This document shows, piece by piece, positions 3,001 through 6,000 of a DNA stretch of 64,000 nucleotides. The position numbers are program-made. The stretch is from a plasmid. The stretch is taken from the NCBI RefSeq assembly GCF_056746865.1, contig NZ_JBWKMP010000005.1; one strand, 5' to 3'. Each line of letters begins with the position of its first letter. Position 1 is the first letter of the stretch.

Positions 3001-6000
3001 TTGCCTGGTGTGTTGTTGCGCCCGTAGCTCGCTGACGCTCACACGCGCAGTACAGCGCCCCGCCCTGCTGCAATGCACCAGGACGGCGTAAACTCGCTGG
3101 CGCTCGCGCTAACTGCGGCATTCTGCGGCGCAAATCAGCATGATCATGGCCTGTCAGTCCGTTGGGCTTTGCAGGGTGAAGGGATGACCCTGTGCATCCT
3201 GGTATGTTCGTCAGCGGCTGCGCCGCGCTTCGGGGCGATGTGGCCCCGCTGCTCCCTGGTATTTCCTTTCGCCCCTTCTATCCGCTGACGCGGATTAAGA
3301 AATGAGCAAATCATCAAGTAAATTGCTGTTTTCAGGCAATAAATCTTGATAATACATCTAAATAGATGTATTATTATTTCATCGAAAGGGGATTGGCTCC
3401 TTTCCTTCTTAAGTCCAAACGGACAGGAGATTTAAAATGAAAACATTGACTTTTAATAACGGCACTGTTTCTGTTGGCGATGTGTTTGTATCTTCCTGGG
3501 GATATGAGCAAACGAACGTTAATTTCTACCAGGTTATTTCTGTTCATGGCAAAAAAACCGTAACTGTTCAGGAGATTCGCGCTTCAGTTCATCGGACTCA
3601 TTCAATGAGCGGATATAAGACCCCATTACTTAATGATTTCTGTGGTGAGCCATTAAAACGGCGAGTGCGTGATTATTACAGTACGCCAGCAATTGAAATT
3701 GAGGAATTCGAAACAGCATATAAAGGATCACCGGAAGAAAAACACGAGTTCACATCATACTACTAAGAAAATAGTTGCAGGGGGTATCCCCTGCAACCAT
3801 GTTAAAAATGTTAATAGTAGTAGTATTTACCCAGGGGGTTTTAGTATGAATGATGGGGTAAAACTCCGTCCTTCAGGGCGTGGAGAATGCCGGGCTAATG
3901 CAGCAATGTAATGTTGCGCCCGTAGCTCGCTGACGCTCACACACGCAGTACAGCGCCGCGCTTCGGGGCGATGTGGCCCCGCTGCTCCCTGGTATTTTCT
4001 TTCGCCCCTTCTATCCGCTGACGCGGATTAAGAAACGAGCAAATCATCAAGTAAATTGCTGTTTTCAGGAAATAAATCTTGATAATACATCTAAATAGAT
4101 GTATTATTGTTTCATCGAAAGGGGATTGGCTCCTTTCCTTCTTAAGTCCAAACGGACAGGAGATTTAAAATGAATATCCAGGAAGCATTAAACGTTTTTG
4201 GATTATCCGGCGAATTAACTGAAAAAGATATCAAAGCAGCATACAGAAAAGCCGCTTTAAAATATCATCCAGATCGTAACCCGTTAGGGGCTGAACTGAT
4301 GAAAGCGGTAAATGCAGCTTTTGATGTCTTGATGGCAAATATTGATAAAATAAATCAGTTCCAGAGCGCTGATGAACATGCACGATATAATTACGGTAAT
4401 GACCTGGAAAAAGTATTAAACGTTCTTTCTGGTTTATCTGGTCTGGTATTTGAAGTGATAGGTAACTGGGTATGGATTAGTGGAGAAACTATTACACATA
4501 AGGAAACTTTAAAAGAAATCGGGTGTAAATGGGCGGCAAAGAAAAAACAATGGTTTTATCGTCCAGACGAACATAAAAGTTACTGGAATCGTGAAGAACA
4601 CACGATAGAAGAAATCCGCGCAAAATACGGTACAACCGGACAGCGCAGGGCGACAGGGTGGCAACGCGTGGAAACCAGAGCGTAACCAGAACGGGGGCGA
4701 GAAGCCCCCGATATCATACCAGCCCGTCTTTTGGGGCATCGAACCCAAAAAGACGGGAACAGCAGCCACGTAGCAAAAAGGGAAACAGATGAACTCTTTT
4801 TTTGAACAATATCACCCTGTCTTTGAAGTTGTCTGCCGTATCCTGGGGAACGGCTGGCGCGTGAACAAACTTGATGATTGTCCGTCTCGTATAAAACTGA
4901 CGTCACCGCAGTTTAAAAATTACTCTGTGCATATTCGGATGGAAAAAGACCGATTTTCTGTTGTGGGGAGTGTGGATAGTCGTTCCTGGAGTAGTCCGTA
5001 TCATGTTTGTACGTTATCCAGGAAGCGGAATCCCGTTGATATAGCAGCCAATATCGAGCGAAAAATTTTGCTAAATGCTTCGCAGGAGGTGTTACAGGCG
5101 ATTGAGTATGAGAAACGCCAGGCGGCAAAAAAGGACGAAATTCTGATCCTGAAAGGTATGTTATCGCAACTTGTCCAGCTTGAAAGCTGGTATGGGGCAT
5201 TGACAGGCTTTAAAGCTGAAAATGGATTGAACGGTAAAGTCACCGAGCAGGGCGAGCGTTATGATTTGCAGATTAGGGGTTTGAGTATAGATCAACTTGT
5301 TAAAATTACAGGATATTTGAAACAGTTATGAGAAAAAACAAAGGGCGATTGACTTATTATCTTGAAGTGATTGATAAAAAATACCATTTTGTAAAAAAAA
5401 TAAGCAGTTATTCAAAGGAGTTCACTGACGGAAAAACAAAAAGAACAAAGAGAACGTTAAGTGAGCTGGTTTTTAATGAAAGTGAGGTCGAGGCAATAGA
5501 CTTTACAAAAAATGGTTTAAGACCTGTTGATAAGAATATTCTCTTAACTATGGTGAAAGAATATAAGGAGAGTGATGCATGACTATTGAAAATACACCGG
5601 AAAACATAAAGAAATTACGTAAAAAAATTGGCCTTACCCAGACAGAGTGCGGTGAGATTTTTGGCGTAGGCTTAAGTACATGGCAGAAAAAAGAAGCTAA
5701 AACCCACAACCAGCTTAATTTATCGAAAGGTGAATTTGAGTACCTGTTATTACTTGCAGGGGAGCACCCTGAATACGTCCTGCATAAAAAAGCTGAATCC
5801 CGCTCACCGGAGGAACCGTGAGCGAGAAGAAAAACACCACGACGCAGAAATCTAAGATATACAGTGTAAAGGTTTATTTGTCTTTACATTGTAATTGTTC
5901 TTTGTCTTTACACAGTGTGTGTTTGTAACAGGGCGACTTTACCCAGTGCGCCGTAAAGCCCCGTCCTTCAGGTCGGGGATATAAGGCGCGGTTTTCCACC

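Follow-up and report, generated by a model that had tools for sequence, protein, structure and literature searches.

In the layout of the insertion sequence (IS) IS608, a TTAC target is combined with an AAAG guide at the left end (LE), and the right end (RE) finishes with TCAA. Gene-less derivatives of the IS200/IS605 family are already known, and a further IS-end remnant, in the form of a single LE/RE hybrid hairpin, is described here for an IncI2 conjugative plasmid (contig NZ_JBWKMP010000005.1, assembly GCF_056746865.1), of which one stretch of 64,000 nt, the window, has been analysed in silico. The segment at 3824-3893 is most likely an inert composite scar, an ordinary product of plasmid decay, in which a piece of plasmid backbone, the start of a lost antidote gene and a decayed hairpin relic follow one another. 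No transposase gene is found at the relic, as an earlier note on this DNA had stated.

The closest described elements are those of the IS609/insQ type. The relic has their LE guide region GTAAAAC, their hairpin loop and core and their RE 3' arm, and in related plasmids it stands behind TTAT; unlike them, it possesses neither tnpA nor tnpB and one hairpin instead of two, and the window copy is devoid of TTAT, TCAA and the first approximately 10 nt. Palindrome-associated transposable elements (PATEs; PMC3119063; PMC7290912; PMC10055086) are likewise gene-less and built of IS end sequence. In PATEs, however, the LE and RE hairpins stay separate, omega-RNA sequence is often included, and the elements are as a rule mobilisable and present in multiple copies, whereas the relic, consisting of IS end sequence only, is fused, single and decayed. 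The free-standing IS605 stem-loops of Borrelia (Delihas 2009, PMC2775950) also persist in plasmids without transposase and are conserved among relatives, but they belong to another IS lineage and host, are tied to lipoprotein-gene 3' ends and keep a structure at the RNA level, of which the relic retains nothing. Repetitive extragenic palindromes (REPs) with their RAYT/TnpA-REP transposases (PMC8266576; PMC3116915) share a single short hairpin, a 5' tetranucleotide guide-like motif and a relationship to IS200/IS605 ends; they occur in high copy number, frequently as pairs (BIME or REPIN), and are handled by a domesticated TnpA-REP, in contrast to the single-copy relic with its different sequence and no RAYT. 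Solo long terminal repeats (LTRs) offer an analogy only: there too the interior is lost by recombination of similar ends and one hybrid end is left, but the repeats of the relic are hairpin cores of 11-14 nt and not LTRs, and transposition follows a wholly different chemistry.

Mosaic structure of the segment and its relatives

The 68-nt string quoted in the earlier note is present at 3824-3891; the coordinates given for it, 3826-3889, were about 2 nt off at each end. The segment is composed of the following parts:

3827-3834, plus strand: TTACCCAG, conserved backbone, located upstream of the toxin gene in relatives bearing the toxin-antitoxin (TA) module
3835-3857, plus strand: antidote remnant, made up of ribosome-binding site and codons 1-4 (ATG AAT GAT GGG), matching the antidote start of plasmids L129 and L130
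3858-3893, plus strand: truncated, mutated single-hairpin IS609-type relic with the GTAAAA guide region, the chimeric hairpin CTCCGTCC-TTCA-GGGCGTGGAG and the tail GAATGCCGG where GGATGTCAA is expected

The mosaic was defined by short-word BLAST of the window against pMTY1887_IncI (L129), a rare IncI2 plasmid, in which four window pieces find four separate counterparts at 93-96% identity: the region upstream of the toxin, the antidote start, the miniature IS derivative (mini) and the GC-rich module. Window 3706-3834 aligns at 96% with L129 237-365 and ends exactly at ...TATTTACCCAG; past this point L129 reads TTACCCAGTGtattcc and L130, a related plasmid with an intact TA module, reads TTATCCGGTGtgttc, followed by the toxin promoter and gene. 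Window 3834-3863 corresponds to L129 2501-2530 (28/30 identical) and to L130 1566-1595 (27/30), the coding sequence annotated as "addiction module antidote" in L129 beginning at 2513. From GTAAAAC on, window 3858-3883 agrees with the L129 mini (2827-2852) in 25 of 26 positions, and in the whole part 3858-3893 a single-hairpin IS derivative of 46 nt is represented by its 3' three-quarters. Window 3898-3957 matches the GC-rich module of L129. The pieces share a G at 3834 and TAAAA at 3859-3863 at their junctions, overlaps as would be expected for microhomology-mediated deletions.

Between the 109-aa open reading frame (ORF) and the J-domain gene, L129 carries successively a RelE/ParE-family toxin, the antidote, a terminator, a near-intact mini and the GC-rich module. 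Its mini lies in the context ...cccctttttttttTTAT/CCGGTGCGCCGTAAAACCCCGTCCTTCAGGGCGTGGGAGATGC, i.e. ttttTTAT/CCGGTGCGCCGTAAAACCCCGTCCTTCAGGGCGTGGGAGATGC (a slash marks the boundary). In L003, a second IncI2 variant with a different deletion, the antidote 3' end, the terminator and a full mini, TTAT/CTGGTGCGCAGTAAAACTCCGTCCTTCAAGGCGTGGAGAATGCCAG, are found at the same site, and in L130 only TTAT/CCGATGCGCC is left, the hairpin having been lost. Since both TA-less forms hold fragments of TA genes, the TA-bearing arrangement is ancestral, and the relic is older than the split of these lineages. The three forms (TA with mini; antidote 3' end with mini; antidote 5' end with truncated mini) mark independent TA losses in the IncI2 interval from parA to the J-domain gene. 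As a separate observation, L129 also contains a full IS at 467-2434, 96.6% identical to that of the window, which is inserted at TTAC within the RelE/ParE toxin gene and parts toxin from antidote. A further observation concerns the antidote start codon, which in the window opens a 21-codon frame, MNDGVKLRPSGRGECRANAAM with its stop codon, at 3847-3912 (plus strand) through the relic; the antidote ribosome-binding site is kept, and the frame shows no sign of being a gene.

These comparisons alter the reading of TTACCCAG, which had been taken for the target together with the first bases of the IS left end. It is indeed located at 3827-3834, but in the relatives it is backbone upstream of the toxin and not the left end of the hairpin element. 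Between it and the hairpin lie 23 nt of unrelated, antidote-derived sequence, and the two would have been joined by two deletions removing the RelE/ParE-antidote module; they do not make up a single mini-element. On its own, TTACCCAG occurs near chance frequency in the window (5 matches against 1.2 expected), two of the matches being the IS copies themselves; it may be a separate, very short relic of a left-end start.

Upstream of the toxin, TTACCCAGTG in L129 (355-366) and TTATCCGGTG in L130 (about 1150-1161) each agree 10/10 with the target and first six bases of one LE type. Beyond those 10 nt this TTAYCCRGTG motif is not LE-like, 70-219 of 500 shuffles scoring equally, and a longer degenerate LE was rejected on that basis. 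The motif was not found in the distant TA homologues. Either a second LE relic, erased almost completely, or a coincidence could account for it.

The chimeric hairpin and its parent element

The hairpin was compared with the ends of the resident IS, for which both boundaries were set from empty sites in the IS-free IncI2 plasmid pHB42-4 (L002):

1229-2976, 1748 bp, plus strand: resident IS copy 1, located after TTAC and ending with TCAA; tnpA on the minus strand, tnpB (402 aa) on the plus strand
5943-7690, 1748 bp, plus strand: resident IS copy 2, identical to copy 1 and located after TTTAC; tnpA on the minus strand, tnpB (402 aa) on the plus strand

The resident IS follows the IS608 layout. 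Directly after TTAC its left end reads CCAGTGCGCCGTAAAG-(CCCCGTCC TTCA GGTCGGGG), and its right end reads (CCACGTCC TTCA GGGCGTGG)AGGATGTCAA, with the hairpins in brackets. The 11-mer core CGTCCTTCAGG occurs exactly five times in the 64 kb, at the four IS ends and at the relic site. With one mismatch allowed, six matches are obtained against 0.47 expected, and six are reached in 0/100 shuffles; the additional match, at 13069 on the minus strand, lies inside a coding sequence and is ascribed to chance. Over a run of 19 nt, CGTCCTTCAGGGCGTGGAG (3867-3885), the relic agrees without a mismatch with the IS right end (2950-2968 and 7664-7682), and the 32-nt relic core agrees with the clean E. coli mini L007 in 30/32 positions. 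Because of the enrichment of the core over shuffles, the resemblance to IS ends is not accidental; the probability of a chance similarity, in whose favour the near-chance frequency of TTACCCAG alone may be mentioned, is regarded as negligible. With significant identity to both LE and RE, the relic is an IS200/IS605-derived sequence.

The hairpin had been described as nearly identical to the RE hairpin, which does not hold. It is chimeric: its 5' side, GTAAAACTCCG, is of the left-end type, and only the loop and the 3' arm with the tail GGGCGTGGAGAATG are of the right-end type, so that the 32-nt core agrees with the window RE in 25/32 and with the window LE in 24/32 positions. The fold has been lost as well. 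When 3850-3892 is folded as single-stranded DNA (ssDNA), the minimum-energy structure is another than the IS-type stem, and the stability of the stretch does not exceed that of shuffles (z = -0.76), as compared with -3.73 for the true LE and -2.89 for the true RE; on the two strands the values are -0.76 and +0.69, and a stable stem-loop is predicted on neither. The stem contains one mismatch inherited from the fusion and a further C-to-T change.

The guide of the relic, at 3860-3863, reads AAAA. In a scan for the LE pattern with one genome per species (117 loci; contigs L009-L128), the guide-target pairs AAAA-TTAT and AAAG-TTAC were found 83 and 19 times, respectively, across phyla, with 2 discordant loci, a covariation which agrees with the IS608 guide rule. 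Owing to its AAAA guide, and to TTAT in the relatives, the relic is assigned to an older TTAT-type IS609-like insertion and not to the resident IS of the AAAG-TTAC type, which is thereby discarded as parent.

Searches with window 3822-3892 (71 nt) gave three classes of matches: (i) the whole 71 nt, in 268 plasmid records, all in IncI2 context; (ii) the hairpin part only (query 37-70), in a second set of IncI2 plasmids; (iii) weaker matches in chromosomes of Shiga toxin-producing E. coli and in other plasmids, which turned out to be clean 46-nt units. The latter have the form TTAT/CCGGTGCGC(C/T)GTAAAACCCCGTCCTTCAGGGCGTGGAGGATGTCAA/, also written TTAT/CCGGTGCGCCGTAAAACCCCGTCCTTCAGGGCGTGGAGGATGTCAA/, bounded by TTAT and TCAA; copies were found within an O157 prophage region, beside nleD, on a Salmonella IncFII plasmid and, in a 109-kb E. 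coli plasmid, upstream of hok. Many 42-nt matches in E. coli chromosomes were set aside, being left ends of full insQ-type IS and not minis. Since the chromosomal insQ-type IS has the left end TTAT/CCAGTGCGCTGTAAAACCCCGTCCTTCAGGGCGGGG and the right end CCACGTCCTTCAGGGCGTGGAGGATGTCAA, with a 14-nt core common to both, the 46-nt unit corresponds to the LE up to the core joined to the RE after the core. The earlier suggestion of a miniature formed by internal deletion therefore stands for the hairpin part, which has lost the IS interior between the end hairpins, as indicated by these clean fusions and by the fuller versions in L129 and L003.

The same single-hairpin design was recognised in 17-19 of the 117 loci, for example in Leminorella, Serratia, Mangrovibacter, Zooshikella and Mariprofundaceae. 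About 15% of the LE-pattern loci and several unrelated E. coli and Salmonella sites carry the 46-nt form, the boundaries in E. coli and Salmonella being identical to the nucleotide. Units composed of the LE 5' half, the hairpin and AGGATGTCAA, running from TTAT or TTAC to TCAA, are seen in L010, L021, L031, L048, L058, L059, L065, L071, L090, L095, L099, L114, L115, L117 and others. IS200/IS605 elements thus seem to collapse repeatedly to a single hybrid hairpin. Independent copies would look alike because a crossover or slip anywhere within the 11-14 nt direct-repeat core gives one and the same product. A fused hairpin may moreover escape excision while a full IS is exposed to TnpA-mediated loss, which would explain why the fossils are common in comparison with full copies. 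There is a small chance that the intact 46-nt unit is a minimal transposable unit movable by TnpA in trans, or a recurrent intermediate toward REP-like single-hairpin repeats; if any single-hairpin unit were mobile, these would be the smallest transposable units known. For the clean minis in the O157 prophage, at nleD and in the 109-kb plasmid, no orthologous empty or IS-filled sites of their flanks were found. Literature searches did not find single-hairpin LE/RE fusions or the relic described, which does not prove that no description exists.

From these data a history in five steps can be proposed. First, an IS609-like element with an AAAA guide and a TTAT target would have inserted just 3' of a TTAT provided by the terminator T-run of the RelE/ParE-antidote cassette, immediately upstream of GC-rich module B in an ancestral leading region of IncI2 type; distant homologues of the TA cassette end with ...cccctttttttAT/ and no IS sequence after it, which fits insertion into a terminator-made TTAT. 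Second, the IS interior would have been lost by recombination or replication slippage within the 11-14 nt core CGTCCTTCAGG(GCG) common to both end hairpins, giving a single chimeric hairpin of 46 nt with an LE 5' half and an RE 3' half. Third, and presumably later, the right-end tail would have decayed, TCAA changing to CCAG or CCGG. Fourth, in the window lineage two microhomology-mediated deletions would have taken the toxin gene together with almost the whole antidote gene, so that the antidote start came to be fused to backbone TTACCCAG on one side and to the GTAAAAC of the relic on the other, with loss of TTAT and the first approximately 10 nt of the element. The remainder, with no usable cleavage sites and a weakened stem, would in the fifth step be immobile under the resident TnpA and have no evident role.

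Several points weigh against this history: (i) no plasmid with a full-length IS at the exact relic site was found, the collapse from IS to mini in situ being deduced from structure; (ii) the right flank of the true empty site of the mini was not found, the distant TA homologues showing an unoccupied ...TTTTTAT/ with unrelated sequence downstream; (iii) the 10-nt match of TTAYCCRGTG to target and LE start is not accounted for; (iv) among the IncI2 variants, conservation of the relic core equals that of its flanks, which neither requires nor excludes selection; (v) according to Meers et al. (PMC10055086), the distance from motif to guide may vary to some extent, and the immobility of the relic is argued from sequence rules.

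Mobility, excision and possible plasmid roles

Excision in this family needs both ends, a cognate adjacent motif and a matching guide, and is scarless (Meers et al., PMC10055086). By these rules the relic is predicted to be uncuttable by TnpA. At the left, it has lost the cleavage site (TTAT) and some 10 nt of the left end; the canonical target position, about 10 nt upstream of GTAAA in functional IS608-type elements, reads GTAT instead of TTAT, and the TTAC at 3827-3830 lies 27 nt away from GTAAAA and is not the partner of an AAAA guide. At the right, the tail reads GGAGAATGCCGG as opposed to GGAGGATGTCAA in IS copies 1 and 2 and in the clean minis, TCAA being replaced by CCGG; there is no separate RE guide of the GGAAT or GGGAT type and no TCAA about 10 nt 3' of the stem. 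The stable imperfect top-strand hairpin of functional ends is absent. The paired LE and RE structures and the multiple copies or polymorphism that define PATEs and miniature inverted-repeat transposable elements (MITEs) are missing too, and in place of the high copy number, GTAG-type guide and tnpA-REP of the REP/RAYT systems there is a single locus with an AAAA guide. The relic thus shows none of the tested properties of a functional or mobilisable element.

These findings bear on the view that 3826-3889 is a functional non-autonomous mini-element (MITE/PATE-like), running from TTAC/CCAG to the hairpin and mobilised in trans by the resident TnpA. In support of it, TTACCCAG corresponds to the target followed by the initial 4 nt of the resident LE, the IS ends have an identical hairpin core, active tnpA copies reside on the same plasmid, single-hairpin minis with intact TTAT or TTAC and TCAA are widespread, and the spacing of motif and guide is somewhat flexible. 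Such an element is nevertheless very unlikely here: the interval from TTACCCAG to the hairpin is antidote-gene sequence and not LE, the AAAA guide pairs with TTAT while the nearby motif is TTAC, TCAA has given way to CCGG, the stem is weakened, excision requires LE and RE together, and the relic occupies one fixed site as a single copy in 551 plasmids, IS-free ones included. For annotation, the segment is better labelled as an IS609-type remnant and toxin-antitoxin deletion scar than as a mini-transposon.

The alternative offered in the earlier note, the footprint of a full IS that has excised from the site, finds some support in the IS-end sequence and in its location a short distance upstream of a module, like IS copies 1 and 2. 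This position is similar only, the distance from the right end to the anchor GTTGCGCCCGTAGCTCGC being 19 nt at the relic as compared with 38 nt for copy 1 and 26 nt for copy 2. In pHB42-4 the empty sites of copy 1, TGTTAC/AGGGTAAC, and copy 2, GACTTTAC/ATAATTGCG, are seamless, target directly followed by flank with no residue, as befits the scarless excision of the family (PMC10055086). In addition, the LE- and RE-type halves are fused inside the hairpin, which TnpA cleavage at TTAT/ and TCAA/ cannot yield. A footprint is therefore rejected as extremely unlikely.

Related plasmids were searched, as the earlier note had proposed: 551 plasmid records contain the relic, the full window form being present in 268 of these, and fuller versions occur in L129 and L003. 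It is single-copy in the window and lies at the same site in the 551 plasmids, E. coli genomes contain a median of 1 match place each, and no empty/filled polymorphism of the window-form relic was found among the compared plasmids. The occurrence of the hairpin in IncI2 plasmids that never carried this IS family had been named as an observation that would refute such a derivation. Taken literally, it has been made, the relic being identical in pHB42-4, where no IS200/IS605 body exists anywhere in 60,959 bp, but it demonstrates the age of the relic and not a non-IS origin. Most resistance-free IncI2 plasmids are likewise reported to be without any IS (Ricker et al., PMC8868234). As a minor observation, the L003-type IncI2 relic with the start of the module recurs almost verbatim in a 668-nt contig of Haemophilus sputorum CCUG 13788 (contig00111, L020), which probably represents contamination or a fragment of a plasmid.

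Most likely the relic is inert, a small probability being left to a co-opted role: the Rfam scan of 1-12000 at the E-value threshold and the terminator and promoter scan of 3400-4250 gave no match on it, and IS-free plasmids have no such hairpin at modules A and C, which function all the same. A hairpin co-opted by the plasmid might act as a boundary or terminator between the operon of the 109-aa ORF and module B, form part of a leading-region ssDNA promoter or priming structure, or serve as a decoy for TnpA. All three IncI2 variants have kept it at the module's 5' edge although their upstream deletions differ, and module B folds strongly as ssDNA; ssDNA promoters are in use in leading regions (PMC11541004), and the conserved Borrelia stem-loops (PMC2775950) provide a precedent. 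Such a role is nonetheless unlikely, considering that a stable stem-loop is predicted on neither strand, that the T-run which follows the GC-rich stem in an intrinsic terminator is absent, that the pHB42-4 sites free of IS carry no hairpin at the other modules, that the hairpin is lost altogether in L130 and that its conservation does not exceed that of the flanks.

Surrounding modules, IS copies and further relics

Window 3437-4200 is 100% identical to E. coli plasmid p14EC029a and also matches hundreds of other IncI2 records. In p14EC029a (L001), the best-matching record, no IS is present at the two sites of the window; by offset arithmetic its copies lie elsewhere, at L001 54-1743 and 8816-10505, one of them inverted, and the IS has therefore moved recently among near-identical plasmids. 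IS copy 1 is 94.4% identical to a chromosomal E. coli IS whose tnpB is annotated insQ, and these chromosomal relatives are IS609-like. The only Rfam matches in the scanned part, sub-threshold ones (HgcC, sot0042, RAGATH-18) at 2866-2989 and 7580-7703 (plus strand), covering the tnpB 3' end and the right end, are consistent with the region of the TnpB guide (omega) RNA.

IS-end relics were also noticed beside hok/Gef loci in the 109-kb plasmid (L141 1505-1550), the O157 prophage (L004 3494-3539) and IncI2 (L002 1517-1561), an adjacency that may be coincidental or due to shared leading-region-like contexts. The IncI2 one is a second relic, outside the window, between repA and hok (L002 1517-1561, minus strand; pHB42-4 2746-2790). 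It reads ACAGTGCGCC-TTATAT-CCCCGTCCTTCAGGGCGTGGAGGATGTCAA with a tail of the intact RE type; where the LE has GTAAAG stands TTATAT, in which the ATATAA located 3' of the LE hairpin recurs as its reverse complement.

Downstream of the relic, the following features are found:

3894-4169, plus strand: GC-rich module B, repeat family D1/D6, upstream of the J-domain gene (4170-4685)
4079-4107, plus strand: module B promoter from the promoter scan, sigma-70-like TTGATA-17-TATTAT, spanning a palindrome

Copies of the GC-rich module occur at 3165-3442, 3898-4175, 7868-8145 and partly at 8801-8842, upstream of successive small operons, each ending in a strong TTGATA-17-TATTAT promoter that spans the palindrome ATACATCTAAATAGATGTAT and in a near-identical ribosome-binding region. 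Both strands of module B fold equally well as ssDNA (z about -3.7). The modules resemble a regulatory cassette used repeatedly in the leading region and could be single-strand promoters or ssi elements. Iterated repeats of approximately 23-48 nt with CTTTACA(N)TGTAAAG palindromes are located at 1102-1218, 5846-5917, 8748-8770 and 10081-10673, beside a parA-like (MipZ) gene and also upstream of several modules, and are possible partition or operator sites. The presence of three IS-family insertions upstream of three modules, in one orientation, would reflect the small intergenic space with its frequent TTAC and TTAT, bounded by the CTTTACA repeats and the module promoters.

All three insertions have their active strand on the plus strand, which would be the lagging-strand template if replication runs away from repA. 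IS608 and ISDra2 prefer the lagging-strand template. In pHB42-4 the relaxase genes lie at about 14.3 kb on the plus strand. Leading-region genes are expressed from the transferred strand (PMC11541004), and the module genes would be transcribed toward oriT, as expected for genes of a leading region.

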